Source: a virus
Lineage: Duplodnaviria > Caudoviricetes
Strand: one strand, 5' to 3'
DNA: 64,000 nt
Virus record (IMG/VR): IMGVR_UViG_3300021962_000022
The notes below the pieces were generated by a model. It was not told where the DNA came from and did not search any database. It worked only from the letters and a program-made list of their open reading frames with translations. How positions within the stretch are numbered: position 1 is the first letter of the stretch; every line of letters begins with the position of its first letter. Positions 37,496-61,416 of this stretch are shown here, one piece after another. Both the position numbers and the translations under genes were made by a program.

Positions 37496-39514
37496 ATGTC
37501 AGTAGATTTTTTCGAAGAAGGAAATGTTTCCAACCCTAAAAAGACAAGAAAGGGTTCTACCACCCCTATCCTTGATAATTTTTCAAGGGATTTAAACAAA
37601 ATGGTTGAAGAAGGTAAAATTGACCCCGTCATTGGTAGAGATAGTGAGGTTAAGAGAATTGCTCAGATTTTATCTCGTAAAAAGAAAAACAATGTTGTAA
37701 TAGTTGGTGATGCTGGTGTGGGTAAATCCGCTTTAGTTGAAAAGTTGGCACAACTAATCATTAAAGGTGATTGTCCGTCGAATCTTTTAGATAAAAGAAT
37801 CGTATCACTTGATTTAACATCATTAGTTGCGGGTACCAAGTATAGAGGTCAATTTGAAGAAAGAATCAAAGCGATATTGAATGAATTACAAAATGAACCC
37901 AATGTCATTGTCTTCATTGATGAAATACATACAATGGTTGGTGCGGGTAATGCCAGTGGTTCAATGGATGCTGCGAATATCATGAAACCCGCGTTAGCAA
38001 GAGGTGAAATTCAATGTATTGGGGCAACCACTTTTGATGAATTTAAAAAACACATTGAAAAAGATGGTGCGTTAGTTAGAAGGTTTCAAAAAATAATTTT
38101 AAAAGAACCAACTAAAGAAGAAACGGTACAAATTTTAAATAATTTGAAAGACTCGTACCAAAGTTTCCACAAGGTATTTTATGAACCGAATGTATTTGAA
38201 ACAATCGTTAACCTCTCATCAAGATTTATTACGGATAGACAATTCCCTGATAAGGCGATTGACGTAATGGACGAACTTGGTTCAGATAAAAAAATTAACA
38301 CTAAAATTCCTGAAGTTTTAGAAAAACTTAAAAAAGATTCCGATGAATTAAAGGAAAGAAAAATACAAGTTGTTAAAAGTCAAAACTACGAACAGGCGGC
38401 AAAATTGAGAGATGAGGAAAGAAAGATATTGAGTAGGTTGGATGAAGAGAAGAAAAAATGGTTGGAAAAACAAAAGGATAACAAGACGCCAGTAACAGTA
38501 GATGATGTTTATGATATTATCTCACAAATGACAGGTGTCCCACTTTCTAAGATTGATGAAAGAGAAACATCAAACTTACTAAGTTTAGAAGAGAAGTTAA
38601 AATCAAAGGTAATTGGACAAGATGACGCCATTTCAATCATTTCAAAAGCGATTAGAAGAAATAGAGTTGGAATCAAAGACACAAATAAACCTATTGGTTC
38701 ATTTATCTTCTTAGGGTCAACAGGTGTTGGTAAAACATATTTAGCAAAATCAATCGCTGAAATTTTATTTGGAGACCCCGACAAAGTTGTGCGTGTAGAT
38801 ATGAGTGAGTACATGGAAAAACACAATGTTGCAAAATTAATCGGTTCTCCTCCGGGATATGTTGGTTATGATGAGGGTGGACAATTAACCGAAAAAATAA
38901 AGAACAATCCATTCTCAGTTGTTTTGTTTGATGAGGTTGAGAAGGCACACAAAGATGTGTTTAACATTTTACTTCAAATCTTGGATGAGGGTCACTTAAC
39001 CGATTCATTTGGTAGAAAGGTTAACTTTACAAATACAATTGTGATTATGACATCAAACATCGGTGCAAAAAAAGTGTCCGAGTTTGGTAAAGGTGTTGGA
39101 TTTGATTCCTCATCGTCTAACAGTCAAAATTTTGAAGTTAAAAAATCCATTGTACAAAAATCTTTGAAGCAACATTTTAATCCTGAGTTTTTAAATAGGG
39201 TTGACGATATTATCAGTTTCAATTCATTGGACAAAGACGTTATCAAAAAAATCATTGGAATTGAATTGAATAAATTAGTTGTGAGATTGAAGGATAAGAA
39301 TTTCAAGATTTCATTTGATAAAACAATCATTGAAAGGATTTCAGAACTCAACACTCAAGAAGATTATGGAGCAAGACCAATTAAAAGAATCATTCAAAAT
39401 CTCTGTGAGGACTTTTTGAGTGATTCAATTTTAAAGGGTGACATCAAAGAAAATGAAACCATAACTTTAAAATTTAAAGATGGTGAAATAAAAATTTTTA
39501 AAAAAAAGGTCTAA
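37496..39514 (+). CDS. ClpC/ClpB-type double AAA+ ATPase lacking the N-terminal Clp repeat domain
   Basis: DPVIGR, GDAGVGKS, FIDEIH, GSTGVGKT, LFDEVEKAH, GARP; only ~20 aa precede NBD1. Confidence 0.93.
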   Translation: MSVDFFEEGNVSNPKKTRKGSTTPILDNFSRDLNKMVEEGKIDPVIGRDSEVKRIAQILSRKKKNNVVIVGDAGVGKSALVEKLAQLIIKGDCPSNLLDKRIVSLDLTSLVAGTKYRGQFEERIKAILNELQNEPNVIVFIDEIHTMVGAGNASGSMDAANIMKPALARGEIQCIGATTFDEFKKHIEKDGALVRRFQKIILKEPTKEETVQILNNLKDSYQSFHKVFYEPNVFETIVNLSSRFITDRQFPDKAIDVMDELGSDKKINTKIPEVLEKLKKDSDELKERKIQVVKSQNYEQAAKLRDEERKILSRLDEEKKKWLEKQKDNKTPVTVDDVYDIISQMTGVPLSKIDERETSNLLSLEEKLKSKVIGQDDAISIISKAIRRNRVGIKDTNKPIGSFIFLGSTGVGKTYLAKSIAEILFGDPDKVVRVDMSEYMEKHNVAKLIGSPPGYVGYDEGGQLTEKIKNNPFSVVLFDEVEKAHKDVFNILLQILDEGHLTDSFGRKVNFTNTIVIMTSNIGAKKVSEFGKGVGFDSSSSNSQNFEVKKSIVQKSLKQHFNPEFLNRVDDIISFNSLDKDVIKKIIGIELNKLVVRLKDKNFKISFDKTIIERISELNTQEDYGARPIKRIIQNLCEDFLSDSILKGDIKENETITLKFKDGEIKIFKKKV

Positions 39515-39704: not shown

Positions 39705-40118
39705 ATGGAATATACAAAAGATTTGATACTTGTTCGTGGTATCCCTGGCTCGGGTAAATCAACTTTGGGTGAGGTAATCCTATACATCCCAAACAACCCG
39801 TTGAAACCTTTATCTGCGGATGATTACTTTATGGATAAAGAGGGTAACTACAATTTCGACCCAACAAAAATTAGGGAAGCTCACAACGACTGCCAACAAA
39901 GATGTGCAAACCTGATGATGAATTCAGTTGTTAGGGTTGTAGTTTCAAATACATTTACACAAGAATGGGAAATGGAACCATATTTTGAAATGGCTCGTAG
40001 ATATGGTTATAGAGTCCACACTGTTATTGTTGAAAATAGACATGGTGGGTCTAACGTTCATGGTGTTCCTGAGGACAAATTAGAAATAATGAAAAATCGA
40101 TTTGAGGTCAAGTTGTGA
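39705..40118 (+). CDS. P-loop kinase (AAA_33 / polynucleotide kinase-like)
   Basis: LVRGIPGSGKST, SADDYF, VVVSNTF, NVHGVP. Confidence 0.85.
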   Translation: MEYTKDLILVRGIPGSGKSTLGEVILYIPNNPLKPLSADDYFMDKEGNYNFDPTKIREAHNDCQQRCANLMMNSVVRVVVSNTFTQEWEMEPYFEMARRYGYRVHTVIVENRHGGSNVHGVPEDKLEIMKNRFEVKL

Positions 40119-41185
40119 TAGATAGACTCGAAAAATATCATGAAGATGGGTTGTTAGTAAAACAAACCCACCCAACTAAAGATTTGTACATTTGGAATTA
40201 CACACCAAGAGTACAATATGAATCTTTATGGGATGATATTACTATGCAATGTCGTGGACTTATTACAACTCATTCGGGAGAAGTTATATCAAGACCATTC
40301 GGTAAGTTTTTTAATTATGAAGAGGTTATTGATAAGGATATGATTCCATGGGACAGTGAGTATGCTCATGTGCAAACAAAAATGGATGGTTCTCTCGGTA
40401 TACTATTTTTCTATGATGGTGAATGGATTATGTCGACAAGGGGTTCATTCACATCTGAACAATCAATTCGAGGATTAGAGATTCTAAAATCAAAATACGA
40501 TTTGGGGAGGTTTTCTAAAGAATTTACTTATCTATGTGAAATAATTTATCCTGAGAATAGAATCGTAGTAAATTACGGTGAGGATAAAATCACATTTTTG
40601 TCTATAACCACTCCTGAAGGAGAATTGAATTGGGCTACATCAAATTTGATATTTCACTCATCAAATATCAAGGAAGAAGATATTGTCAATAGTACTATGG
40701 TCACTTTTAATAAAGAAACTTTCGATACTTACAAAAAACTAAACTTACCAAATGAGGAGGGATTTGTCATTAGATTTTATCCATCTAATTTTAGGATGAA
40801 GATAAAATTTGAGGAGTATGTTCGTTTACATAGAATTTTAACCAACGTATCAAATAGAGATATTTGGGAAGTACTTCGTACCAATGGTGACATGAAAGAA
40901 ATACTTGATGGTGTACCAGATGAATTTTATGATTGGGTCCGTAAAACAAAAGAGGATTTATTATTCCAATACAAACACTTGGAACGTGAATACCAATGGA
41001 TTTTTAAAATCATAAATCGAGCCCCGAACATAGAAAATCGAGCTGTTTTCGCTGAGTACGCAAAGAGATATAAACACCCCTCAATATTGTTTAATATGTT
41101 AGATAATAAGGATTACTCCCAACAAATTTGGAAGTTGATTTATCCATCATATTCGAAACCATTTAAAACAAATGAAGAGAATTAG
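40115..41185 (+). CDS. RNA ligase, T4 Rnl1-like
   Basis: CRGLI, RPFGKFFN, KMDGSLG (adenylated Lys), EII, EGFV, MKIK. Confidence 0.9.
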   Translation: MIDRLEKYHEDGLLVKQTHPTKDLYIWNYTPRVQYESLWDDITMQCRGLITTHSGEVISRPFGKFFNYEEVIDKDMIPWDSEYAHVQTKMDGSLGILFFYDGEWIMSTRGSFTSEQSIRGLEILKSKYDLGRFSKEFTYLCEIIYPENRIVVNYGEDKITFLSITTPEGELNWATSNLIFHSSNIKEEDIVNSTMVTFNKETFDTYKKLNLPNEEGFVIRFYPSNFRMKIKFEEYVRLHRILTNVSNRDIWEVLRTNGDMKEILDGVPDEFYDWVRKTKEDLLFQYKHLEREYQWIFKIINRAPNIENRAVFAEYAKRYKHPSILFNMLDNKDYSQQIWKLIYPSYSKPFKTNEEN

Positions 41186-41612
41186 TAAGAAGAATTATAC
41201 AATGAAAACGAGAATTTATTTAGACGATGTAAGAACCCCCATCGAAAAAGACCAATGGGTTGTTGTTAGAAATTACGAAGAGTTTGTAAATAAAGTTAGT
41301 GAAATTGGTTTGGAGAACATATCTCTAATATCATTGGACCACGATTTAGGTGAAACAGCAATGGCCGAATGGCATCGTAATGTTTATCACCACTATGAGT
41401 TAGATTATGACAACATCTTGGAAAAAACCGGAATGGATTGTACCAAATGGTTGGTTGAACAATGGATGAATGGTAAACCCGTGGTTGACGTTGTTGTTCA
41501 TTCCGCAAACGCTATTGGTAGCGGTAATATGATGGGTTACATAAACAACTACAGACACATTAATCGACTACCTCAGAACTGTATTAGAGTTCAAATTGAA
41601 CATACTGTGTAA
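41172..41612 (+). CDS. Cyclic-phosphate-processing receiver-like domain protein
   Basis: IYLDDVRTP, SLDHDLG, KTGMDC..WL, VHSAN..G..NM; alternative start at 41202. Confidence 0.75.
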   Translation: MKRISKKNYTMKTRIYLDDVRTPIEKDQWVVVRNYEEFVNKVSEIGLENISLISLDHDLGETAMAEWHRNVYHHYELDYDNILEKTGMDCTKWLVEQWMNGKPVVDVVVHSANAIGSGNMMGYINNYRHINRLPQNCIRVQIEHTV

Positions 41613-50805: not shown

Positions 50806-50875
50806 GGGCCTGATGTCAACGGCAGACCGTCTGATTTGCAATCAGAACGATTGGGTTCGATTCCCACAGTGTCCA
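50806..50875 (+). tRNA. tRNA-Ala(TGC), imperfect acceptor/T stems
   Basis: TCTGA-TT TGC AA-TCAGA; G3:U70 present; TTCGATT loop. Confidence 0.7.
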
Positions 50876-50907: not shown

Positions 50908-50980
50908 GGTACCGTAGCTCAGTAGGTAGAGCACCAGACTGAAAATCTGGGTGTCACTGGTTCAAATCCAGTCGGTACCA
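50908..50980 (+). tRNA. tRNA-Phe(GAA)
   Basis: CCAGA-CT GAA AA-TCTGG; acceptor GGTACCG/CGGTACC. Confidence 0.95.
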
Positions 50981-50985
50981 CACTT

Positions 50986-51059
50986 GTCTTCGTAGCTCAG
51001 TTGGTTAGAGCACCTCACTTTTAATGAGGGAGTCACGCGTTCGAGTCGCGTCGGGGACA
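50986..51059 (+). tRNA. tRNA-Lys(TTT)
   Basis: CCTCA-CT TTT AA-TGAGG. Confidence 0.95.
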
Positions 51060-51063
51060 CAAA

Positions 51064-51191
51064 GGTTGATTGGGGAATGGTTATGTCTATAGTTCGAGAG
51101 TGAATACTGACTGATATAATCGGAGTTTGGAGGTATTCACCTAAGTAACGCCAATCGTAAAAGGAGATGTCCACTGAACCATCTTCTCCTT
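51064..51191 (+). ncRNA. Unassigned structured RNA A
   Basis: GATTGG/CCAATC, GTTAT/GTAAC, GTGAATAC/GTATTCAC, AGGAGATG/CATCTTCT. Confidence 0.5.
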
Positions 51192-51201
51192 TCCTTGACT
51201 T

Positions 51202-51274
51202 AGTTCCTTAGCTCAGTTGGTAGAGCATCTGCCTTACATGCAGAGGGTCGTTGGTTCGAATCCGACAGGAACTA
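51202..51274 (+). tRNA. tRNA-Val(TAC)
   Basis: TCTGC-CT TAC AT-GCAGA. Confidence 0.95.
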
Positions 51275-51282
51275 CATTATAC

Positions 51283-51353
51283 ACAGGTGTGGTGAAAGGG
51301 TATCATACCGGTCTCCAAAACCGTTGTTGGGAGTTCGAATCTCTCCACCTGTG
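51283..51353 (+). tRNA. tRNA-Trp(CCA)
   Basis: CGGT-CT CCA AA-ACCG; acceptor ACAGGTG/CACCTGT. Confidence 0.92.
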
Positions 51354-51428
51354 CAAATTATATGTAAAGACATATAAAATAACGGTACATAATAAAATTA
51401 TATCTAAAAACATATAAAACTAAAAACT

Positions 51429-51860
51429 ATGAATAATCAAATGGGAATCGAAGCAGCAAAAATTAAATTTGAGGCTGAGAAAATGAAACTAAAGGAGGAA
51501 AGAGAACAAAGGATTAAAGATTTTTGGGAAAACGGAATACCCAAATTAAATAATCCTGAAGACGTACCAACCCTTCCAAGAGTGAATGAAAAAGAATGGA
51601 AAGAGTATTATGTACCAAGATTGATTGATGCGGGTGCAATCCCCAAAAAAGATTTAATCCACGGACAAGTTTATATTGGTGACCATCGAAACACAGATGT
51701 TGCAAGATGGAATCAAGAAACAAATAAATTTGACCATATGAGATATAAATTTGGTTGGAGGAAAGATGACTGTAACCATTTTGAAGATGATGATGGGTTT
51801 GCGTTATTTGTTCCGATTAGATTAGGTACTGAAGATGATTGGAATGAAAGAATTAAATAA
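51429..51860 (+). CDS. Hypothetical protein within the tRNA array
   Basis: 143 aa, A-rich initiation context. Confidence 0.75.
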   Translation: MNNQMGIEAAKIKFEAEKMKLKEEREQRIKDFWENGIPKLNNPEDVPTLPRVNEKEWKEYYVPRLIDAGAIPKKDLIHGQVYIGDHRNTDVARWNQETNKFDHMRYKFGWRKDDCNHFEDDDGFALFVPIRLGTEDDWNERIK

Positions 51861-51865
51861 ATGAT

Positions 51866-51939
51866 ACTCTCGTAGTTCAATGGATTAGAACATTTCACTA
51901 CGGATGAAAGGGTTGGGAGTTCGAGTCTCTCCGAGAGTA
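51866..51939 (+). tRNA. tRNA-Arg(ACG)
   Basis: TTTCA-CT ACG GA-TGAAA. Confidence 0.93.
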
Positions 51940-51945
51940 CAATAA

Positions 51946-52015
51946 GGTCAGTTTGGTCATGGAGGCCGGTTAGTCTGCAAAACTAACGGAGTTGGTTCGA
52001 TTCCAACATTGACCT
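51946..52015 (+). tRNA. tRNA-Cys(GCA)
   Basis: TTAGT-CT GCA AA-ACTAA; U73 discriminator. Confidence 0.9.
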
Positions 52016-52071
52016 CAATATAAGGTCTGAACCTAATAGTGGGGGATTATTAGGTCTAGAACTTATAATAT

Positions 52072-52146
52072 GGTAGATATAGTTCAGTTGGTTAGAACGT
52101 CTGATTGTGGTTCAGAAGGTCGTCGGTTCGAATCCGATTATTTACC
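52072..52146 (+). tRNA. tRNA-His(GTG)
   Basis: TCTGA-TT GTG GT-TCAGA; G-1:C73. Confidence 0.93.
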
Positions 52147-52152
52147 CTTTAT

Positions 52153-52229
52153 TGGAATATAGCTCAATTGGTTAGAGCATTCGTCTGATACGCGAAAGGT
52201 TATAGGTTCGATTCCTATTATTCCAACCA
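52153..52229 (+). tRNA. tRNA-Ile(GAT), CCA encoded
   Basis: TTCGT-CT GAT AC-GCGAA. Confidence 0.95.
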
Positions 52230-52234
52230 AACAT

Positions 52235-52308
52235 TGCGGGGTGGACTGGAGAGGTTCCAGCTCAGTCTCATAAGCTGAATGACGTGGGTTCGATTCCCAC
52301 CCCCGCAA
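52235..52308 (+). tRNA. tRNA-Met(CAT), initiator-like 5' end
   Basis: TCAGT-CT CAT AA-GCTGA; starts TGCGGGGTGG but lacks the three G:C anticodon-stem pairs. Confidence 0.85.
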
Positions 52309-52388
52309 CTTTTTCATTGAATATTTTGAAATATGAAATTTCATGTTTATATTTTAATTGTTCGTTTGTTCTTTGAAATAAAAATATG

Positions 52389-52471
52389 GGTATAACTAGG
52401 GTCGAGCCAGATTTTGCCACGGTTATATCAAGGGTTGGAAGGACCAGAGCTGGCCGTGACTACTCCAACCC
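52389..52471 (+). ncRNA. Unassigned structured RNA B (two hairpins with complementary loops)
   Basis: GGTATAAC/GTTATATC and GGGTTGGA/TCCAACCC; loop segments GCCAG/CTGGC and GGTC/GACT; boxA-like site at 52367-79 upstream. Confidence 0.55.
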
Positions 52472-52477
52472 ACTATC

Positions 52478-52551
52478 GCCTCCTTAGCTCAGTTGGCCAG
52501 AGCGCCTCACTTGTAATGAGGATGTCGTTGGTTCGAATCCGACAGGAGGCT
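52478..52551 (+). tRNA. tRNA-Thr(TGT)
   Basis: CCTCA-CT TGT AA-TGAGG. Confidence 0.95.
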
Positions 52552-52560
52552 CTGCAGGGT

Positions 52561-52646
52561 TTTCGGTGTAAAGGGTGTCACAACCTACCTGAGCAAAACC
52601 TAACACATGTCCACTATGTGTTAGGGTAATGTGGATAAAACCGAAA
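52561..52646 (+). ncRNA. Unassigned structured RNA C (pseudoknot)
   Basis: TTTCGGT/ACCGAAA closing stem; CCTAACACAT/ATGTGTTAGG with loop GTCCAC pairing to GTGGAT at 52631-36. Confidence 0.55.
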
Positions 52647-52648
52647 TT

Positions 52649-52720
52649 GGTCTCATAGTTAAACGGCTATAATGCAGCCCTGTCACGGCTGAGTTCGGGG
52701 TTCGATTCCCCGTGGGACCG
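52649..52720 (+). tRNA. tRNA-Asp(GTC)
   Basis: CAGCC-CT GTC AC-GGCTG. Confidence 0.95.
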
Positions 52721-52721
52721 C

Positions 52722-53005
52722 AATGGGTAAGAGATACTCAGGAAGATTGGCTACATTCTTTAAAAAAGTAGTGGTGGTAAAAAAATCCTCGACCTTAATG
52801 AGGTATCGATTCGGATAAAACGGTAGCAAGACTCTGCACCGCCGACGTATAGAGTTGACAGGTTTTTATGTGGTAAGACACTAATGAGAAAGGCCCAATG
52901 ATGGAGGACACTTTTAAGCAATATGTTCAGAGAGCGTTGGGGGATATGGTTCTCGAAACAGTGAGAGAAACCCGTTAAAATCTACTTATTGTAATCTCAG
53001 ATAAG
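52722..53005 (+). ncRNA. Unassigned ~285-nt multi-helix RNA D
   Basis: AATGGGT/ACCCGTT long-range pair; CCCAAT/GTTGGG crossing GAGAGC/GTTCTC; several local hairpins; no ORF in the track. Confidence 0.5.
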
Positions 53006-53011
53006 GAAATT

Positions 53012-53097
53012 GGAGAGTTGGCAGAGCTGGTTGAACGCGGCGGTCTTGAAAACCGTTTTATCGAAAGGTAACGGGGGTTCGAATCCCTCACTCTCCG
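53012..53097 (+). tRNA. tRNA-Ser(TGA)
   Basis: GCGGT-CT TGA AA-ACCGT; long variable arm. Confidence 0.95.
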
Positions 53098-53105
53098 CAA
53101 ATTAT

Positions 53106-53180
53106 GGCCCTTTCGTCTATCGGTTAGGACAGGTCCCTTTCACGGACCAGAGACGGGTTCGATTCCCGTAGGGGCTACCA
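53106..53180 (+). tRNA. tRNA-Glu(TTC), CCA encoded
   Basis: GGTCC-CT TTC AC-GGACC. Confidence 0.95.
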
Positions 53181-53194
53181 AACAAAAAACCAAT

Positions 53195-53437
53195 ATGTTA
53201 GAGAAAATTTTAGAACAATACGAAGGTGAAGAAATCTTAATCGCGGATGGATTTGATAATGCTGTTATAGGTATTGACGAATCTTCAATGAGATTAATTT
53301 ATTCTGTTGAAAAGTGTATAGAAATCCTTATGAAACAAGGAATGGATATGACTGAAGCCGTTGAATACTTTGATTTTAATGTGTCAGGTTCATATGTTGG
53401 GGAGAAGACACCAATATGGTGTGACGATTTATTTTAA
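53195..53437 (+). CDS. Small acidic hypothetical protein
   Basis: 80 aa; ADGFDNAVIG..RLIYS..EAVEYFDFNV.GSYVGEKTP. Confidence 0.75.
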   Translation: MLEKILEQYEGEEILIADGFDNAVIGIDESSMRLIYSVEKCIEILMKQGMDMTEAVEYFDFNVSGSYVGEKTPIWCDDLF

Positions 53438-53550
53438 AAAATAACACCCTATGTTACCCTATTGTTAAAGGAATTTATTAATATGTTTTTTTTATTATAT
53501 TACAATATCTATAAGTAATAATAAAAAATAAAAACAAACAAAAGAAAATT

Positions 53551-53715
53551 ATGCAAAAAGAACAAATACTAGGAATCGTAAGACACACATTAACATTTAT
53601 TGGTGGTGCATTAGTAGCAAAAGGATTAACAACAGACGTTTTATCTAATGAATTAATTGGTGCTGCAATGACATTAATTGGTGGTGTGTGGTCAATCATA
53701 TCAAAAAATAAATAA
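53551..53715 (+). CDS. Small two-TM protein, holin-like (not in the ORF track)
   Basis: MQKEQILGIVRHTLTFIGGALVAKGLTTDVLSNELIGAAMTLIGGVWSIISKNK, 54 aa, A-rich initiation region. Confidence 0.75.
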   Translation: MQKEQILGIVRHTLTFIGGALVAKGLTTDVLSNELIGAAMTLIGGVWSIISKNK

Positions 53716-53731
53716 AAAAATTTTAAAATTA

Positions 53732-53762
53732 CTTGTAAATAAAAAAACTTTTCGTATCTTTG
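53732..53762 (+). promoter_or_regulatory. Bacteroidota sigma70-type promoter of tRNA operon 2
   Basis: CTTG (53732-35), 19-nt spacer, TATCTTTG (53755-62). Confidence 0.8.
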
Positions 53763-53779
53763 TAATAGTTATTTAAGAA

Positions 53780-53884
53780 ATGATGAACTTGGTATACATA
53801 CAACAACCGTCAAACAATCCACTTAGTGGTAATGGGAGAGGTATATATTTATGTGGCCCAAGTTCGGAGTTAAACAAGTTGTAA
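53780..53884 (+). CDS. Candidate attenuator leader peptide 2 (MMNLVYIQQPSNNPLSGNGRGIYLCGPSSELNKL)
   Basis: 34-codon ORF between promoter and terminator; contains the antiterminator segment 53861-53871. Confidence 0.5.
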   Translation: MMNLVYIQQPSNNPLSGNGRGIYLCGPSSELNKL

Positions 53885-53910
53885 GAAAGTAAAAAACTTA
53901 TAGACAGGTG

Positions 53911-53942
53911 AAACCCGAACTCAAAAAAAGTTCGGGTTTTTT
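53911..53942 (+). terminator. Attenuator terminator 2
   Basis: AAACCCGAACT-CAAAAAA-AGTTCGGGTTT plus T run. Confidence 0.9.
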
Positions 53943-53980
53943 GTTTTTTAAGATTTTCGCTCTTATATTTTGATTATATT

Positions 53981-54003
53981 TGTTCTTTGACATATTGGTT
54001 TAA
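53981..54003 (+). promoter_or_regulatory. boxA-like antitermination element
   Basis: Identical to 50882-50904. Confidence 0.6.
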
Positions 54004-54009
54004 GTAGAT

Positions 54010-54094
54010 GCCGAGGTGATGGAATGGTAGACATGAGGGACTTAAAATCCCTTGGACAGTAATGTTCGTGTGGGTTCGACTCCCATCCTCGGTA
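54010..54094 (+). tRNA. tRNA-Leu(TAA)
   Basis: AGGGA-CT TAA AA-TCCCT; long variable arm. Confidence 0.95.
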
Positions 54095-54097
54095 CAA

Positions 54098-54300
54098 AAG
54101 AAACATCCTTACAGAAGGTGATAATGCTTCACTGAAAGGACTACTGACTTCCAAGTGGGTCGCAACCACAATCGGAAGGTACGACACGGCTCAGTAGACT
54201 CTGTAATGGACCCTGATCTATGGTGCACACATAACAGGTGATGGGGAACAAACCATCGGTAAAATCTAAACCTACGGTGAGCGTAGAAGGATTGTTTCTT
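54098..54300 (+). ncRNA. Unassigned ~200-nt multi-helix RNA E
   Basis: AAGAAACA-TCCT/AGGA-T-TGTTTCTT ends; TACAGA/TCTGTA; CTACTGA/TCAGTAG; CTTCC/GGAAG; CCTG/CAGG; GATGG/CCATC; CTACG/CGTAG. Confidence 0.65.
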
Positions 54301-54306
54301 TTTTTT

Positions 54307-54380
54307 GTCTCCGTAGCTCAGTTGGATAGAGCAACAGCCTTCTAAGCTGTGGGTCATTGGTTCGAATCCAATCGGGGATA
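54307..54380 (+). tRNA. tRNA-Arg(TCT)
   Basis: ACAGC-CT TCT AA-GCTGT. Confidence 0.95.
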
Positions 54381-54382
54381 CT

Positions 54383-54522
54383 AAGATAGTGGTCACTCTT
54401 ACAATGAAAGTCGACAAAGTAGTTGTAAGGTTCATAGTGTTCAGCACCCTCGGCCAGTGCACTGATAAAACTCAGAAGAAGCCGTTAAGATTGGAGCGAG
54501 ATGGGTACTCCATCACTATCTT
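54383..54522 (+). ncRNA. Unassigned ~140-nt structured RNA F
   Basis: AAGATAGTG/CACTATCTT ends; CTTACAA/TTGTAAG enclosing GAA...AGTA; TCAG-CAC/GTG-CA-CTGA; TGGAG/CTCCA. Confidence 0.6.
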
Positions 54523-54527
54523 TTTAT

Positions 54528-54600
<73 letters not shown>

Positions 54601-54605
54601 CACAA

Positions 54606-54677
54606 TCCTCGATAGCTCAGCGGTAGAGCACACGGCTGTTAACCGTGTGGTCGTTGGTTCGAATCCATCTCGGGGAG
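54606..54677 (+). tRNA. tRNA-Asn(GTT)
   Basis: CACGG-CT GTT AA-CCGTG. Confidence 0.93.
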
Positions 54678-54753
54678 CAAAAAAATCGCTGATAGAAACA
54701 TCGAAGGTGTACAATGCTAGCAACACCGTAGGTTAAGCGATATCCTACAATAG

Positions 54754-54834
54754 GCCTTGGTGGTGGAATGGTAGACACGCTAGTCTTAGGAACTAGTGGC
54801 GAAAGTCGTGTCGGTTCGAGTCCGACCTGAGGTA
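54754..54834 (+). tRNA. tRNA-Leu(TAG)
   Basis: CTAGT-CT TAG GA-ACTAG; long variable arm. Confidence 0.95.
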
Positions 54835-54840
54835 CAAAAT

Positions 54841-54923
54841 TGAAAGGTGGGTGAGTGGTTAAAACCGACAGACTGTAAATCTGTTCTCTTTGGAGTACGG
54901 CGGTTCGAATCCGTCCCTTTCAA
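54841..54923 (+). tRNA. tRNA-Tyr(GTA)
   Basis: ACAGA-CT GTA AA-TCTGT; long variable arm. Confidence 0.95.
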
Positions 54924-54936
54924 CAAAAATATTAAT

Positions 54937-55491
54937 ATGGGAACTAGAAGTAAAAAAATTTCAGAGATGTTATCAAACATAACACCTGAAATGAAAGAGA
55001 AATGGAAACAAGAAAGAGTTGAGAGTAAAAAGAAATTAACTCTTGAATATCAACTTGGTTACTATGTTGGTTTGGAGATTGTTCACAGATATCTACCAAC
55101 ACTTTCCACAGATATGTTACAATCTCGTACCGTGATTGAAGTTTCTGAAGAAGATACTTTAGAAAATGAAAGATTGGATACCGAATGGTATTCAACAACA
55201 ACACACGGTGGAGAATGGAATGGTGTTGATGAAAATGGTAATAAAGAAAAATGGGAGTTGTACCATCAACACAATAAGATGTTAGAGAGGAAATACCTAC
55301 CAAATCCATTAGAGTGTTACATGAGTTTATTAAATGTTCAAAACATGGATGAATTTAAAAAAGGTTTAAGGTTCGCTTTGTGGGATTGTGATATGTGTTC
55401 ATACAATATTGAACCTGAAAACATAAAAATTTACGATGATGAACAATCAATGTTTACAATCATCGAATTACAATTAGATTCAGTGGTGTAG
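54937..55491 (+). CDS. Hypothetical protein within the tRNA array
   Basis: In frame with ORF-track 54847; true start likely ATG 54937 (MGTRSKK) after tRNA-Tyr; stop lies inside the next tRNA. Confidence 0.75.
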   Translation: MGTRSKKISEMLSNITPEMKEKWKQERVESKKKLTLEYQLGYYVGLEIVHRYLPTLSTDMLQSRTVIEVSEEDTLENERLDTEWYSTTTHGGEWNGVDENGNKEKWELYHQHNKMLERKYLPNPLECYMSLLNVQNMDEFKKGLRFALWDCDMCSYNIEPENIKIYDDEQSMFTIIELQLDSVV

Positions 55492-55558
55492 CTCAATTGG
55501 TGAGAGCAGGACTCTTATACAGTCAAGGTTATGGGTTCAAATCCCGTCATCACTACCA
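55482..55558 (+). tRNA. tRNA-Ile(TAT), CCA encoded
   Basis: GACT-CT TAT AC-AGTC; acceptor AGTGGTG/CATCACT. Confidence 0.85.
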
Positions 55559-55581
55559 ATTATCGTCGATTTGAACGATAC

Positions 55582-55655
55582 GGTCCCTTAGCTCAGTTGG
55601 TTAGAGCAACTGACTCATAATCAGTAGGTCCACGGTTCAAGCCCGTGAGGGACCA
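55582..55655 (+). tRNA. tRNA(CAT), Ile2-like (lysidine type) or elongator Met
   Basis: ACTGA-CT CAT AA-TCAGT; body GGTCCCTTAGCTCAG..TTAGAGCA..GACTCATAATC resembles bacterial Ile2 tRNAs. Confidence 0.85.
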
Positions 55656-55682
55656 CGGAGATATTTATATAATAAAAAAACT

Positions 55683-56054
55683 ATGGGAATTGAATTAAAA
55701 AAGAAAAAACAACTTATTGAAAGATTAAATAAAAGATTATTATCTGAAGCTGAGATGGAATGCCCCAAATCAACAAAAGATACTGAACTTAACGACACCA
55801 ATAAGAAAAAAATCGAAAAGACACATCAGTACGGATTACCAACTGAAGAAGCAAAAGAAAAAAATCAAAATTGTGGAAATTGTGTTGCGTTTGATATTTC
55901 ATCAAGAATGAAAGATTGTATGAGTGATAATAGTGGTGAAATTGGTTATTGTTGGATGCACCACTTTATGTGTTCAGGAAAAAAATGGTGTGACACATGG
56001 GTTGAAGGTGGTCCAATCACAAAAGATTCTGTTTCATACGAAAAACAACAATAA
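55683..56054 (+). CDS. Cys-rich protein with HiPIP-like cysteine spacing
   Basis: NCGNCVAF...GYCWMHHFMC...WCDTW; TATTTATA upstream. Confidence 0.65.
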   Translation: MGIELKKKKQLIERLNKRLLSEAEMECPKSTKDTELNDTNKKKIEKTHQYGLPTEEAKEKNQNCGNCVAFDISSRMKDCMSDNSGEIGYCWMHHFMCSGKKWCDTWVEGGPITKDSVSYEKQQ

Positions 56055-56117
56055 ATGTAGTCGTACCCTTAACTCCAAAACTCACCTATGAGTCTCCGTT
56101 ATGGGAAGGCTACTCCC

Positions 56118-56190
56118 GCGGAAATAGCTCAGTTGGTAGAGCATCACCTTGCCAAGGTGAGGGTCGCGAGTTCGAGTCTCGTTTTCCGCT
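56118..56190 (+). tRNA. tRNA-Gly(GCC)
   Basis: TCACC-TT GCC AA-GGTGA; U73. Confidence 0.95.
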
Positions 56191-56259
56191 CTAAGTAAAC
56201 CTTAAAAAGGGCCCTTCCGTTGGTACGACAACGGCTTGTTGGGCCCGGGTTTACTTTTT

Positions 56260-56331
56260 GCGAATATCGTATAATGGTCATTACTCCTTCCTTCCAAGTA
56301 GGAGATGTCGGTTCGATTCCGGCTATTCGCT
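56260..56331 (+). tRNA. tRNA-Gly(TCC)
   Basis: CCTTC-CT TCC AA-GTAGG (one mismatch); U73. Confidence 0.9.
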
Positions 56332-56384
56332 CAATCATTATAGAGACTACTAAATCGGGTTAGTGAGAATCTATTTGTTATTAT

Positions 56385-56455
56385 TGTCCTGTGGTGTAAC
56401 GGCAGCACATCTGGTTTTGGTCCAGAGAATTGAGGTTCGAATCCTTGCGGGACAA
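56385..56455 (+). tRNA. tRNA-Gln(TTG)
   Basis: TCTGG-TT TTG GT-CCAGA. Confidence 0.92.
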
Positions 56456-56493
56456 CAAAATTTTTAAATCATAAAAAAACCAATATGTCGAGA

Positions 56494-56581
56494 GGAAAGT
56501 TACCCAAGTTGGTGAAGGGGACGGTTTGCTAAACCGTTAGGTCGAGTAATCGGCGCGAGGGTTCGAGCCCCTCACTTTCCG
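56494..56581 (+). tRNA. tRNA-Ser(GCT)
   Basis: ACGGT-TT GCT AA-ACCGT; long variable arm. Confidence 0.95.
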
Positions 56582-56612
56582 CAAAATACTTATAACTAGA
56601 ATAATATGTAAT

Positions 56613-57074
56613 ATGACAAAATTTAGAACATTGTACGGAACACCCATAACTGACGTTATTGGTTACATCAAAGATTATTTGGTGGATAAAACTGATGTTG
56701 AGATATTAATTGGTTCGGATTCACAATCATTTAGTAATTCAAAAACGGTTTATGGAGTGGTTATTGCACTTTACACAACAGGTAAGGGTGCACACGTATT
56801 ATGTACTAAAGACGTTACACCATTTGAAAAAGATACATCAAGTAGATTAATGACCGAAGTTTGGAAAGCTGTTGAAGTTGCTGAACATTTGAGAAATAAT
56901 GGTTTACCAAAAGCCACATGGATTGATATAGACTTAAATCCTGACCCAAGATATAAATCAAACAAAGTTTTAAGACAAGCGGTTGGTTTGGTTGAGGGTA
57001 TGGGATACAAGGTAAGATACAAACACGCAGGTGCTATGGTGACTTACAGTGCAAACCATTTGGTAAGAATTTAA
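56613..57074 (+). CDS. RNase H-like protein, YkuK/DUF458 family
   Basis: ILIGSDSQ, GKGA, RLMTEV..AVEVA, IDIDLN..KSN, C-terminal A.H. Confidence 0.75.
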   Translation: MTKFRTLYGTPITDVIGYIKDYLVDKTDVEILIGSDSQSFSNSKTVYGVVIALYTTGKGAHVLCTKDVTPFEKDTSSRLMTEVWKAVEVAEHLRNNGLPKATWIDIDLNPDPRYKSNKVLRQAVGLVEGMGYKVRYKHAGAMVTYSANHLVRI

Positions 57075-57102: not shown

Positions 57103-57133
57103 CTTGTTTTTTAAAAAAAGTTTCTTACCTTTG
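57103..57133 (+). promoter_or_regulatory. Bacteroidota sigma70-type promoter of the 690-aa protein / RNA-array operon
   Basis: CTTG (57103-06), 19-nt spacer, TACCTTTG (57126-33). Confidence 0.8.
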
Positions 57134-57171
57134 TACCACTACAATAAATTACAACATTTAATACGACATAT

Positions 57172-59244
57172 ATGACAACAAGAAATTTAGTTGCATTTCA
57201 AAAGAATTTGGTGTGTTCACCAAACGACGGTCAAGATAACAGAATCGCCGTAGCAACCGTACAATCCCACCTAATGCAATGGGGTTACATGTTAGACGAA
57301 GACGCTTTCTTCGCATTATCCAAATCAGATTTATCGTTTATTCAAAACTTCAATGACGAAGTGTTGAATCATTTGAAAAATGTAATGGGGGGTAATCGTA
57401 ATTACCAACCTTTATATAAAAATTTCCCACAAGAAGTAATGGTTATGTCCGACTTCGAATTGTACATGAACGCAATCATGCACTATTGGAGTAACGGTCA
57501 ATGGGAACCATCCACCCATACTTATGAGAAAGAAATCAAGTTTGAAAAAATCAAATACAACTTGATTAAGTATGGTACTTCGGAAAGATTCTCAAAAATT
57601 TTCACTGATTTAGTGTCAATAAACACATCATTAACTCCTCAAGACCTTGAGATTGTTAAATGGTTTGTTGAGAGTGGTGAAACATTGGTCTTCCCTGACA
57701 CAATTCCCTTTAAAGAGAACTTGTGTACATTGGCGGCCATGGGAATCGCGGGATTACCAGTTAAGACTTCAACCGATGTGTTAAGAATCGCCGTTCATCT
57801 TTCAGGTGGTGATATCAGTTTACCAAAAGTTCCTGAAAAGGAAATTAGAGCAAACAGATGGACTACTCAAAGGATTACAAATCCCGAAAGAGAAAAGTTT
57901 AAATTCAAGAAATTCTCTCGTAAAGAAAGAAAATACATCTTGGGTTTACTTGAGAACACAAACTGCGACCCACGTGAAATGGTTTTAAGAGACCAACGTT
58001 GGGTTCGTTTAGGTGAAATATTACACCCCGGTGAATATAAAAACCAATTCCCTAAGTCTTTCGAGGCCTTCAACAAAATCCGAAACGAGAAAGTAAAATC
58101 TTGGTTCGCACTTGTTAATGAAGGTTTCAATAAAGGGTTAGAGAATGGTTTGAGAGTATTGTCTCAAAGACCCGGTGAATTCTCTCGTAGAATGGATTGG
58201 TTGGTTCGTACATATCCAAAAGATATCGAACTAATTATGAAGTTCTTCGGGGAAGTGGTAAAAGGTACATCAAACAAAGTATTGTTTGAGGTTTACACTC
58301 ACTTTGAAAATCGTACTGAACCTGTAGATAATAGGTCTATTATGATTAAAGGAGCGAGAAAACGTACCACGTTACCATCACTACCAGCAATCCCTAAAGA
58401 AATTGTGGAAACCATCCACTCTAAATTATTTGAAACACTTAGAGATAAGTTTTCGGTAATGGAATCTTTAGGTAACTGTTGGATTGATGAGGAATTGAAA
58501 AAAATTCCTTTACCAACCAACATGAGAAGTATGAACTTCTCAACTAAACCAACAATCAGAGGTCAAAGAGTTCCACTTGAAAACCCTGATGCAAAAGTTA
58601 TCAGACCGTTTGTTCATTGGATGGATAAACGTGGTAGCGAAGACTTGGATTTAAGTGTTACGTTTGTTGGTGAAAAAGTGTCAGAAGTATTATCTTTCAG
58701 TAACTTGAGAGTTGGTAAATCTTGTCACTCAGGGGACGTGAGACATAGACAGGGTCCTTGTGCCGAGTACATCGACATCGATATCCAAGATGCGTTAAAA
58801 CAAGGATTCAAATACGCCGTTATTGACGTGAGAAACTTCAATGGTGGTACTTTGAGTTCACTTGAAACATCTTTTGGTATCATGGAACGAGAACATCCTG
58901 AATCAAACAAAACATGGTTACCTGAAACAATTTCAAATTGTCAATCATTGGAATCGGCGTCGTCAAACACATTGATTTCTATTATTGACCTTGAAACTAA
59001 GGAGTACATCATGTTGGATGTTGATTCATCAGGTTTCGTTACCGCGAGAGGTGACTTCAAAAACACACTGAAAGTAATTCAACAATACGCGGAATTACCA
59101 AAAGTAAGTGTTTATGACCTTATTCTTCTACACGTAGAAGGTCGAGGAAAACAAGTTACTCTTGATGAAAATGTCGACGTACATTTTAAGTACGAGGACT
59201 TCTGTTACTCTTATGAAGAGACAGGTAAATTGATGGGTGTCTAA
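57172..59244 (+). CDS. 690-aa protein: helical N-terminal region (possible Ro60/TROVE-like) plus C-terminal TerD-like domain
   Basis: C-terminal DLDLSV..HSGDVR..CAEYIDIDI..YAVIDVRNF resembles TerD; the TROVE-like call for the N-terminus is inference from size, helicity and the adjacent RNAs. Confidence 0.65.
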   Translation: MTTRNLVAFQKNLVCSPNDGQDNRIAVATVQSHLMQWGYMLDEDAFFALSKSDLSFIQNFNDEVLNHLKNVMGGNRNYQPLYKNFPQEVMVMSDFELYMNAIMHYWSNGQWEPSTHTYEKEIKFEKIKYNLIKYGTSERFSKIFTDLVSINTSLTPQDLEIVKWFVESGETLVFPDTIPFKENLCTLAAMGIAGLPVKTSTDVLRIAVHLSGGDISLPKVPEKEIRANRWTTQRITNPEREKFKFKKFSRKERKYILGLLENTNCDPREMVLRDQRWVRLGEILHPGEYKNQFPKSFEAFNKIRNEKVKSWFALVNEGFNKGLENGLRVLSQRPGEFSRRMDWLVRTYPKDIELIMKFFGEVVKGTSNKVLFEVYTHFENRTEPVDNRSIMIKGARKRTTLPSLPAIPKEIVETIHSKLFETLRDKFSVMESLGNCWIDEELKKIPLPTNMRSMNFSTKPTIRGQRVPLENPDAKVIRPFVHWMDKRGSEDLDLSVTFVGEKVSEVLSFSNLRVGKSCHSGDVRHRQGPCAEYIDIDIQDALKQGFKYAVIDVRNFNGGTLSSLETSFGIMEREHPESNKTWLPETISNCQSLESASSNTLISIIDLETKEYIMLDVDSSGFVTARGDFKNTLKVIQQYAELPKVSVYDLILLHVEGRGKQVTLDENVDVHFKYEDFCYSYEETGKLMGV

Positions 59245-59272
59245 ACCCACCCATCAGTTCTTTGAAATACTA

Positions 59273-59672
59273 TATGTGGCTATGTGAGCCATTGAGAGGA
59301 TAGTCAACTGCCCATCACACCAAACCACGAGGTGGTTCTGTTTTGGGCCTTAGCGGTGACAAAAGTATCAATGCAAACGTCTTACTTCTAACATACAACT
59401 ATCAGATACATCGTTAGACACACAATCTCCACATAAACTTCTTTGACGGCTATGTACTAAGTTACTTCTAGCTAAACAATTGGATGTTATCACACTTGTA
59501 CCCTTTCCGTCTACCATCTTAAGTGGCTATCTACCAACTTACTTCTATATTATATCAGATAAAATAAAAATTAGTTGTAGTCTTTCCACTTTAAAAATCT
59601 TAATGGCTATGTGATTAGTTACTTCTAACTTTGACTGATTATCAAACCAACGATACTAACACAATTCCCATT
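59273..59672 (+). ncRNA. Tandem array of four bulged-stem RNAs (Y/Yrl-like candidates)
   Basis: Units 59273-435, 59445-511, 59522-590, 59602-672 share invariant GGCTAT and TTACTTCTA with compensatory stem changes; boxA-like GTTCTTTGAAAT at 59257-68. Confidence 0.8.
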
Positions 59673-59700
59673 TTTAAAAACAACATTTAAAACAACAATT

Positions 59701-60150
59701 ATGGCAACAAAAACAACAACCGACGAAAAAGTTAAACAACTGTTTGACCTCGTACAAGAAAAAAAATTAGCAATTGAAAAGGCGGAAAGACCTTGTTGGA
59801 AAACAAGTTGTAATTTCGGATTTTCAGCAAATTCTGCACACGACAGAACATCAATTCCATTAGTAACTGATGTTCGTAAACTTGTAGAAATGTACGCTTT
59901 CTTGATGGAAAGACGTGATAAATCTGAAAGTGCAGCAAAAGAGCTTGGAGTTGATTACAACTTCACTTGGTTAGGATTTACCGTAGAAGAATGGAAAGAT
60001 GATTTCCAAACTCGAGTAAATCAAATTTCAATTCAAGAAAAACGTAAAGAACTCGCCGAATTAGAATCTCGTTTGAATGCAATTATTTCACCCGAATTAA
60101 AAGCACAAATGGAATTAGAGGCAATTGAAAAATTATTGAGTTCTAAGTAA
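59701..60150 (+). CDS. Hypothetical protein, last gene of the RNA-array operon
   Basis: 149 aa, C-terminal coiled coil. Confidence 0.8.
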   Translation: MATKTTTDEKVKQLFDLVQEKKLAIEKAERPCWKTSCNFGFSANSAHDRTSIPLVTDVRKLVEMYAFLMERRDKSESAAKELGVDYNFTWLGFTVEEWKDDFQTRVNQISIQEKRKELAELESRLNAIISPELKAQMELEAIEKLLSSK

Positions 60151-60212
60151 AAACTTTTCTTGGTTTAGTAAAATCAAGTGGTGGAGTCGTACCGAAAAAC
60201 CGGTCGTCCTGT

Positions 60213-60241
60213 TAAGGGGTTGGGCAACTAACCCCTTTTTT
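60213..60241 (+). terminator. Rho-independent terminator
   Basis: GGGGTTG-GGCAAC-TAACCCC plus T run. Confidence 0.8.
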
Positions 60242-60272
60242 AAATAAAATAATTTATATATATTTACAATAT

Positions 60273-60992
60273 ATGAGAATAGTTTGTATATCCGATACCC
60301 ACTCTTTGCATCCGTATATGTCACATGACATACCGAATGGTGATATATTAATACATTCTGGTGATTGTACAAATATTGGTGAAGAAAATGATGTTCGTGA
60401 GTTTATTACTTGGTTCCAAAATATTCAGGGATTTAGTCATAAAATTTTTATTGCGGGAAATCATGATTTTGCATTTGAAAGAGAACCTTCATGGTTAAAT
60501 CTCTACATTGACCCAAATATTTTAACAGAACACAATGTAACATATTTGGAAGACGGTGAATTAGAGATTGTAAGTTCCGAATTTTCGAGACCGATAAAAA
60601 TATACGGTAGTCCATGGCAACCTGAATTTTATGATTGGGCATTTAACTTACCGAGAAATGGTGAGGTTTTAGCATCAAGATGGGCGGACATACCTGATAA
60701 TACAGATATCTTAATCACCCATGGACCTCCACACGGTATTAGAGACTTTACTCCCACAAATTTACAAGTGGGATGTGAGTTACTGAGAAGTAGGGTTTTT
60801 GAAATAAGACCGTTATTACATGTTTTTGGACATATACACGGTGCTTATGGTGGTGTTGAGGTAGACGGTATCACTTTCGCAAACGCATCAATTTGTACTG
60901 AAAGATATAAACCAACTAATAAACCATTAGTTTTTGATTTAACAGAAAATAATGGTAATTTTACAATTACATACGTAGACGAAGAAAATTAA
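60273..60992 (+). CDS. Calcineurin-like metallophosphoesterase
   Basis: ISDTH, HSGD, IAGNHD, THGPP, VFGHIH. Confidence 0.93.
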   Translation: MRIVCISDTHSLHPYMSHDIPNGDILIHSGDCTNIGEENDVREFITWFQNIQGFSHKIFIAGNHDFAFEREPSWLNLYIDPNILTEHNVTYLEDGELEIVSSEFSRPIKIYGSPWQPEFYDWAFNLPRNGEVLASRWADIPDNTDILITHGPPHGIRDFTPTNLQVGCELLRSRVFEIRPLLHVFGHIHGAYGGVEVDGITFANASICTERYKPTNKPLVFDLTENNGNFTITYVDEEN

Positions 60993-61019
60993 TTATCTTT
61001 GTTTCGTTCTTTGATTTAT

Positions 61020-61416
61020 GGGGGTGTATGGAATTGATTGGCATTGATATTCTAAATGGGCACGTAGTCGGACTTCATCTACGACTTAAATCTACGGTGG
61101 AAAAATTCAAACGGCAACGTTTACAACAACATGGAAGTAGCAGGTCTTCTTGCAACTTCTAAAGTTGCTGCCTAATCGGTAGTAACTAACGGGTCGATGG
61201 ACACATAACCTTGGAACAGAAGTCCTTACAGTGTAATACCACTTAGAGTGTTAGGAGAATGGCCTGATTGTCTCTTTAAATTATAGTCAGGAACAGGTTT
61301 GTTGTTTTTCTGTATATGAAATCAAATATTTGTTGGTTGTGAATAACCAAATAAACGTGTAGTCCATTTATGGTATGATGAGCAAGACGCGGGTTCGAAA
61401 CCCGCCACCTCCACCA
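61020..61416 (+). ncRNA. ssrA: tmRNA
   Basis: Acceptor GGGGGTG/CACCTCC with G3:U70 and ACCA end, T arm GCGGG-TTCGAAA-CCCGC, internal tag frame 61113-61175 (GNVYNNMEVAGLLATSKVAA*); TATCTTTG box at 60994-61001. Confidence 0.93.

Follow-up and report, generated by a model that had tools for sequence, protein, structure and literature searches.

A candidate Ro60/Y-RNA-like ribonucleoprotein of non-canonical parts in the stable-RNA and RNA-repair island of a phage

Background

Ro60/Y RNA particles have been described in animals, in some bacteria and in a small number of phages, and to our knowledge they have so far always been discovered through searches for the TROVE domain. A locus in the genome of a tailed phage raises the question of whether a particle of this kind can also be assembled from other parts. 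It lies in a 64,000-nt stretch of DNA (here called the window; IMG/VR record IMGVR_UViG_3300021962_000022, Duplodnaviria, Caudoviricetes), in which an open reading frame for a 690-aa protein (57172-59244; plus strand, as are all features of the locus described below) is followed, after a spacer of 456 nt, by an open reading frame for a 149-aa protein of unknown function (59701-60150; phrog_2574, likewise of unknown function), and the spacer holds four tandem RNA units. A sequence-only reading of this DNA had proposed a ribonucleoprotein operon, in which a TerD-tailed and possibly Ro60-like protein is loaded with these RNAs. The analysis reported here supports that interpretation: we put the probability that the locus encodes a phage Ro60/Y-RNA-like ribonucleoprotein of non-canonical parts, set in an island of tRNA, tmRNA and RNA-repair genes, at roughly 60%. 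In the literature we found no paper that describes the 690-aa protein family, the RNA motif or their pairing.

The four units are structured RNAs

Units 2 (59443-59513), 3 (59520-59592) and 4 (59600-59674) are plain copies of one simple scaffold, while unit 1 (59273-59435) is of an extension type, in which a conserved branched helix of 92 nt (59287-59378) is inserted at the position of the bulge. The gaps between the units are only 6-7 nt long, as in a tRNA array, and in every unit TACTTCTA follows GGCTAT at a distance of 14 nt (104 nt in unit 1). In the common scaffold an outer stem ending in GG/CC is joined through an internal loop (CUAU) to a helix that has a one-base bulge and is closed by an invariant U-A pair; after this comes the single-stranded UACUUCUA. 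The large loop often contains a small hairpin with a covarying stem and the loop AUUGG, as it does in unit 2; unit 4 has an inner hairpin as well. Unconstrained minimum free energy (MFE) folds of units 1-4 recover the scaffold, and that of unit 2 is identical to the consensus. A covariance model (R1), which was built from close relatives only (73-98% protein identity), matches units 2, 3 and 4 with 70.9 bits (E 4e-17), 69.3 bits and 66.5 bits, respectively; unit 1 scores weakly (16.9 bits) because of its insertion. The 456-nt spacer folded as a single RNA is uninformative (z = -1.2), and therefore the units must be folded individually.

The stems that the sequence-only reading had listed for units 1-4 pair exactly as it claimed, and its argument from covariation holds in a much larger sample. 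In an alignment of 30 simple units from the window and its relatives, GGC.A, UUACUUCU, the closing U-A pair and CC are invariant. The structure tested (outer stem of 7 bp; 4-nt/5-nt internal loop; two 4-bp helices separated by a one-base bulge) is paired in 89.8% of the cells, compared with 67.0% in column shuffles, with 121 double-sided changes against 37 expected, and sliding the 3' partner by 1-3 columns reduces the paired cells to 34-46%. With units of distant phages included (63 in total) the corresponding values are 89.3% against 58.4% and 298 against 92, in an alignment that was fitted to the model and hence is biased towards the structure. The extension of unit 1 shows compensatory changes at 22 of its 42 predicted pairs in an alignment of 10 orthologous units. 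The covariation is strong and far beyond chance, and the units are real structured RNAs.

No family of Rfam 15 covers the scaffold, the hairpin or the extension of unit 1, and neither ARAGORN nor the Rfam tRNA model (RF00005) calls a tRNA within 59245-59700. Sub-threshold Rfam matches in the locus (snoR03, SraG, CRISPR-DR7 at 59672-59708, and others) all have E > 0.4 and were dismissed as chance. A CRISPR-like array was likewise excluded, as the units are not identical repeats with spacers: their stems differ and covary.

The RNA array and the 690-aa gene are linked across distant phages

The sequence-only reading had suggested building a covariance model and looking for the array beside homologous genes in other phages, and there the two indeed occur together. 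In all 23 close loci from IMG/VR an array of 3 to 7 or more units lies right 3' of the gene. R1 also finds the RNA beside homologues in 10 of 11 distant loci (22-60% protein identity), on the strand of the gene and in an unannotated spacer adjoining it. These include Xanthomonas phage XacN1 (38.4, 27.1 and 21.9 bits), Rhodococcus phage Weasels2 (27.5, 26.3 and 22.1 bits), a phage contig from human faeces (28.4 bits) and, more weakly, Rhodobacter phage RcXuper (18.4 bits), the proteins of which are 22-30% identical to that of the window, as well as six of seven further metagenomic homologues with 31-60% identity (L028, L029, L031, L032, L038 and L039; L numbers denote loci of homologues). The position of the array varies: it is 5' of the gene in some phages, 3' in others and on both sides in one. 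When R1 was run over five whole phage records (~1.09 Mb), all matches at E <= 0.01 adjoined the gene. The pairing thus spans phages of Bacteroidota-like, gammaproteobacterial, alphaproteobacterial and actinobacterial hosts, and the RNA and the protein are genetically linked across distant phages.

According to tblastn, the 149-aa gene follows the array directly in the same 23 of 23 close loci and in L028 and L029; it was not found after the array in more distant phages. In a language-model look-up of the ESM Atlas the neighbours of the 149-aa protein were viral clusters with no Pfam family in common.

The 690-aa protein resembles Ro60 in predicted shape and carries a TerD fold

The 690-aa protein has no Pfam match and belongs to a single PHROG, phrog_33734, of unknown function; its family comprises 2,425 representative clusters at 50% identity (E <= 0.001). 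An AlphaFold2 model made from 60 homologues (pLDDT 88.6, pTM 0.81) predicts two parts: an alpha-helical repeat region with a shape like that of the Ro60/TROVE ring (aa 1-455, 57172-58536) and a beta-sandwich (~aa 455-645, 58534-59106), which occupies the place of the von Willebrand factor A (vWA) domain of Ro60. In this model the C-terminal domain has the TerD fold (PF02342), with a Foldseek probability of 1.0 and TerZ matched at E 3e-6, as the sequence-only reading had anticipated for the tail of the protein. The Pfam TerD model does not reach the protein by sequence.

The case for the helical body is less clear than that for the TerD domain. The best structural matches of the modelled body are solved Ro60 proteins. 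An independent shape search of the ESM Atlas returned a TROVE cluster (TM 0.46/0.55, 273 residues aligned); Foldseek with the full model found the Ro60 of Thermus phage phiLo alone among Ro60s, and weakly (probability 0.72), and with the helical part it found nothing. In the same place as the vWA domain with its metal-ion-dependent adhesion site (MIDAS), the protein has the TerD beta-sandwich, and as it thus has no vWA domain we do not file it as a TROVE member. On the basis of the models we regard it as Ro60-like in shape, with common ancestry unproven; the proposed divergent Ro/TROVE ring is plausible as to shape and finds no counterpart in sequence comparisons, which are given below.

Searches of Protein Data Bank (PDB) sequences with phmmer and with the family profile yielded chance matches only, and a language-model look-up of the helical part in the ESM Atlas returned only clusters of the protein's own kind. 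Among AlphaFold DB clusters the same helical body occurs in bacteria with other tails, namely in RING-finger proteins of the MXAN_6230/SCO0854 type and in proteins named DUF4132. For the best matching cluster in that database, at 33% identity, the automatic name is "ZorC EH domain"; a link to Zorya was dropped, as the Pfam family EH_Signature (PF15611) matches nothing in the genome of the window.

Some homologous arrays carry tRNA-like modules or whole tRNAs

The sequence-only reading had called for a comparison of the units with the Rfam Y RNA and YrlA models. For the window itself the outcome is negative (see below), and two of the homologous arrays give partial matches. The YrlA model matches the RcXuper array with 40.7 bits (E 1.7e-7 in a search of 701 bases; L025 2186-2249) and the Weasels2 array with 26.4 bits (L026 4520-4587), in both cases below its gathering score of 69. 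The match comprises the tRNA-like core (T arm, closed acceptor-like stem and D arm; model positions 23-87), which, as we read the two sequences, sits in the loop of a scaffold of the R1 kind, hereafter called the handle. As a control, the same model scores 32.5 bits over the same positions beside the canonical Ro60 of Mycobacterium phage Bxz1, for whose phage group YrlA has been reported (Chen et al. 2014, PMC4201824). Against the YrlA core, the modules of RcXuper and Weasels2 thus score on a par with the YrlA next to a canonical phage Ro60; R1 has no match at the Bxz1 locus. Pfam finds no TROVE gene in the complete genomes of RcXuper, Weasels2, XacN1 and a 310-kb relative of the window, so that the TerD-tailed protein is the only candidate partner for the YrlA-like RNAs. 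The suggestion in the sequence-only reading that TTACTTC resembles YrlA is unsupported, because in the YrlA alignments shown that stretch lies outside the match.

Further combinations occur. Some units of close relatives have a T-arm hairpin in the loop, and many arrays end with a tRNA into which the handle and a hairpin are inserted, either between the D and anticodon arms or within the anticodon loop. Such tRNAs have ~45-60 extra nt with GGCUAU ... UACUUCUA, are found by the Rfam tRNA model and are missed by ARAGORN (L001 6703-6828, L009 6705-6827, L015 6651-6777, L016 6752-6877 and L021 6049-6185, and further L028 6189-6310, L029 4216-4336 and 5007-5123, and L038 1403-1533). In L028 (6055-6182) the two halves of the handle flank a complete tRNA-Met(CAU) with an encoded CCA. 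We also considered TTACTTC as a 7-nt, anticodon-like hairpin loop and rejected this for the simple units, where its flanks pair inconsistently; it is true only of some tRNA-embedded copies.

The locus is part of a stable-RNA and RNA-repair island

The gene, the boxA-like site, the RNA units and the terminator described in the sequence-only reading are all present where it had placed them. Upstream of the 690-aa gene there is a promoter-like site of the Bacteroidota type (TTG, ~19 nt, TACCTTTG; 57105-57133), with the start codon 39 nt downstream. It fits the -33/-7 pattern of Bacteroidota promoters and, as read from the sequence, is a plausible promoter; the -7 motif TANNTTTG is not enriched across the window (90 found against 99 expected). 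No strong terminator was found between the 690-aa gene and an intrinsic terminator-like hairpin (60214-60237), which with its T run (60214-60245) marks the end of the unit. Immediately 5' of the array stands the boxA-like GTTCTTTGA (59257-59265), one of five plus-strand copies within 50.8-61.0 kb. Four of the five lie 14-28 nt 5' of a stable-RNA gene (the first tRNA, tRNA-Leu, unit 1 of the array and the tmRNA), and the fifth (52368) has tRNA-Thr 110 nt downstream. The motif GTTCTTTRA occurs 10 times, counting both strands, against 3.0 expected.

ARAGORN finds 25 tRNAs within 50908-56582, and an additional weak match to the tRNA model (31.8 bits, just above the gathering score) is seen at 50806-50875, 5' of the first of them. 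Just 3' of the unit follow a metallophosphoesterase gene (60273-60992) and a tmRNA (61020-61416; Rfam, 90.5 bits); the latter is preceded by a promoter-like TATCTTTG at 60994 and by the boxA-like GTTCTTTGA at 61006. About 16 kb 5' of the locus there is an RNA-repair cassette (39705-41612) of an AAA_33 kinase (137 aa), a T4 Rnl1-type RNA ligase (356 aa) and a protein with a cyclic-phosphate-processing receiver (cREC) domain (146 aa). Near the distant homologues we found Thg1, Tpt1/KptA, a nucleotidyltransferase of the PolyA_pol family (CCA-adding type), metallophosphoesterases, tRNAs and tmRNAs, and nucleotidyltransferases are annotated near the gene in RcXuper and XacN1. The theme of the context is tRNA maintenance and RNA repair, as at bacterial Ro60 loci. 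A tmRNA and tRNAs also adjoin the homologues of RcXuper (L025 1716-2132) and of the faecal contig (L024 808-1108), and the architecture of the island is therefore conserved across phyla.

Contigs from four freshwater metatranscriptome runs, which belong to three studies, cover the 690-aa gene and the tmRNA and little of the flanks; the tmRNA is covered in all four runs. One contig spans the gene into unit 1 (59095-59393).

Comparison with Ro60/Y RNA systems

Canonical Ro60 systems of phages and bacteria have been described with YrlA (Chen et al. 2014, PMC4201824) and, in Thermus phage phiLo, with Yrl1 and Yrl2 (PMC12135203), and TROVE proteins of jumbo phages have been mentioned briefly (PMC7824862). 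The locus shares with these systems a predicted helical-repeat body for which solved Ro60 proteins are the best structural matches, one to several tandem small-RNA genes adjoining the gene of the Ro-like protein on its strand, and a place among RNA-repair and tRNA genes. As in Y RNAs, the ends of each unit pair into a long stem that includes an internal loop and a bulged helix, as covariation and folds both indicate, and this constant module is joined to a variable, sometimes tRNA-like, module. The differences are equally clear. TROVE similarity is undetectable in the sequence, and the TerD beta-sandwich replaces the vWA domain and its MIDAS. The constant module reads GGCUAU ... UACUUCUA ... 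UUUCC, without CGAA or GGUCCGA; the arrays, with 3 to 7 or more units, exceed theirs in length; the module also occurs within, or around, otherwise normal tRNAs; and the tRNA-like domain of YrlA, though present in homologous arrays, is missing from the units of the window. The protein is equally unusual as a carrier of the TerD domain. Ter proteins are single-domain proteins of ~190 aa in clusters of the terZABCDE type, whereas here the domain forms the tail of a 690-aa protein in an island of RNA genes, with no other ter genes nearby.

A further parallel is Listeria phage CKA15, for which a candidate Ro-like protein within 2 kb of highly transcribed non-coding regions has been proposed to form a Y RNA system (PMC12282133). 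There, as here, the phage protein is linked to Rsr only by remote homology or structure prediction. The paper differs in that it neither reports a TerD domain nor defines an RNA structure (PMC12282133), and we found no relation in sequence, as no Listeria phage is among the tblastn matches of the 690-aa protein.

Several results weigh against a Ro60/Y RNA interpretation of the locus. Pfam TROVE (PF05731) does not match the 690-aa protein at E <= 1 and matches nothing else in the genome of the window, none of the 25 families listed at E <= 10 for the 60 homologues is TROVE, and an hhalign comparison of the family alignment with a TROVE alignment of 26 sequences, for which the Ro protein of phage Bxz1 was the starting point, yields a probability of 0.14%. 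Structural Z scores fall to 5.5-6.9 when the helical part is used alone. On the RNA side, the window's own units match no Rfam family, with nothing at E <= 10 for Y RNA and YrlA (RF00019, RF02553), and they have neither a T arm nor a D arm; for the T arm this is what the sequence-only reading had stated, and the Rfam and ARAGORN results contain none. The known Ro-binding motifs GGUCCGA, GNCGAA(N)G and CGAA (PMC4201824, PMC12135203) are absent, the 5' strand of the units being GGC.A (mostly GGCUAUG) without CGAA. One of the distant homologues (L037) has no unit within 2.5 kb. Finally, no metatranscriptome contig covers units 2-4, which we do not count as absence because contigs of standard libraries recover short structured RNAs poorly.

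Proposed mechanism and alternative explanations

In the particle that we propose, the 690-aa protein would combine a helical body shaped like the Ro60/TROVE ring with a TerD beta-sandwich instead of a vWA domain; the TerD fold is known elsewhere for calcium binding. The four RNAs would be co-transcribed with the gene under rrn-type antitermination, like the neighbouring tRNAs and tmRNA, and the transcript would be cut into small stable RNAs of ~70-160 nt. The handle, with its outer stem ending in GG/CC, asymmetric internal loop, one-base-bulged helix closed by U-A and exposed UACUUCUA, would be the site to which the protein binds, and the variable part would be the working end, whose form ranges from a small hairpin or a T arm through a long extension helix and a YrlA-type tRNA-like domain to a whole tRNA. 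As in Y RNAs, this part may tether the protein to enzymes that recognise tRNA or that degrade or repair RNA, or it may present tRNA-like decoys. The role of the particle would be to keep the phage's own translation RNAs intact during infection, as is suggested by the 25 tRNAs, the tmRNA, the metallophosphoesterase and the cassette of kinase, Rnl1-type ligase and cyclic-phosphate-processing protein. Binding of the RNAs by the protein, their processing into small RNAs and this function are thus what we infer for the locus.

In the main rival, which we consider unlikely, the handle serves as a signal for processing or sorting that marks phage tRNAs and tRNA-like RNAs for cutting, for intron-like excision and religation, or for modification; the 690-aa protein would then recognise it transiently, and units that consist of the handle only would be left-over or regulatory copies. 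Such a signal would account for handles inside tRNAs (in L009, L015, L016, L021, L028, L029 and L038) and around the whole tRNA-Met of L028, and the window does encode an Rnl1-type ligase, a kinase and a cyclic-phosphate domain. On the other hand, no nuclease or ligase domain is found in the model of the protein or among its conserved residues, most units, the four of the window included, have no tRNA part, and the permuted YrlA-type domains of RcXuper and Weasels2 would be unable to mature into tRNAs. It is quite improbable, in our view, that the units are free-standing small RNAs that act independently of the 690-aa protein, e.g. as decoys for host tRNA-cleaving defence nucleases or as sponges for host factors. 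An island of stable-RNA genes would be a natural place for them, and there are tRNA mimics in the sister arrays; yet the pairing with the gene persists down to 22-30% protein identity in phages of four bacterial phyla with otherwise different gene neighbourhoods, and the RNA is absent elsewhere in the phage genomes searched. So persistent and exclusive a pairing is hard to explain without a functional tie of RNA and protein.

Another explanation makes the units cis-acting elements of the mRNA instead of separate small RNAs, acting on the 690-aa or the 149-aa gene through autoregulatory binding, stabilisation or control of translation. Their position in an untranslated spacer, within what appears to be a single transcription unit, fits this, and one RNA contig connects the gene with unit 1. 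We nevertheless give this explanation very little credence, given that the copy number ranges from 3 to 7 or more among close relatives, that the array stands 5' of the gene in some phages and 3' in others, that tRNA genes are interleaved with the units in L029, that the array is preceded by a boxA-like site of the kind found before four tRNA/tmRNA units, and that some units contain tRNA-like domains. Barely credible is a family of repeats that have no function as RNA (miniature mobile elements, recombination sites or the like). Tandem repetition and variable copy number speak for it; against it, the stems vary and still pair, the loops are invariant, the structure is conserved across phyla, all copies share the orientation of the gene, terminal inverted repeats and target duplications are missing, and R1 finds no scattered copies elsewhere in the five phage records.

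The Ro60/Y-RNA-like ribonucleoprotein can be extended, very tentatively and with the odds against it, to a widespread class in which a TerD-tailed, Ro-shaped protein holds a universal handle with interchangeable cargo (permuted tRNA mimics, whole tRNAs) and acts as a tRNA-guarding decoy or as a hub of repair and quality control against host nucleases that attack tRNA. In any case, a protein family of ~2,400 clusters with no Pfam family and no described function is now tied to a class of structured RNA that is absent from Rfam. That the handle is fused to real tRNAs as well as to tRNA mimics, and this in several topologies, offers direct experimental access to the role of the tRNA-like parts of Y-like RNAs, and as three cultured phages (Weasels2, RcXuper and XacN1) carry the system, it is testable at once. 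The system may help to explain the tRNA, tmRNA and RNA-repair islands of large phages and, if the wider, tentative view of such a class is true, the Ro60/Y RNA principle is much commoner in viruses than TROVE-based searches show.

Genome setting and further observations

The window is the end of a viral contig of 115.9 kb, with a CheckV completeness of 38%. Close relatives lie on contigs that reach 310 kb, and one of these contigs has terminal repeats; this makes the source a large phage. When the locus was searched as DNA against the phage collection, nothing matched. The DNA is present in runs from freshwater, estuarine and marine metagenomes. One relative was binned with Puia, which together with the promoter pattern suggests a host among Bacteroidota.

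Just 5' of the locus, a 153-aa protein (56613-57074) matches the Pfam family RNaseH_like (PF04308, E 1.3e-16), and this protein is kept 5' of the 690-aa gene in 12 close relatives. A ClpB-like ATPase is encoded at 37496-39514, near the RNA-repair cassette. In several relatives a tRNA with a CUA anticodon (an amber suppressor, labelled Pyl by ARAGORN) lies just 5' of the 690-aa gene (L001 3822-3894, L009 3834-3908, L013 3312-3386 and L018 3572-3643), which hints at reassignment of a stop codon in some members of the phage group; the window has no CUA-anticodon tRNA at this place. The complete 310-kb relative (L015) encodes a GOLLD RNA (8272-8670; Rfam, 315.7 bits) 2 kb 3' of the array, and at the equivalent place L001 and L013 have a tmRNA. 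Group I introns are present 3' of the locus in two other relatives (L007 8742-8956, Rfam 65.8 bits; L009 9271-9485, 68.7 bits).

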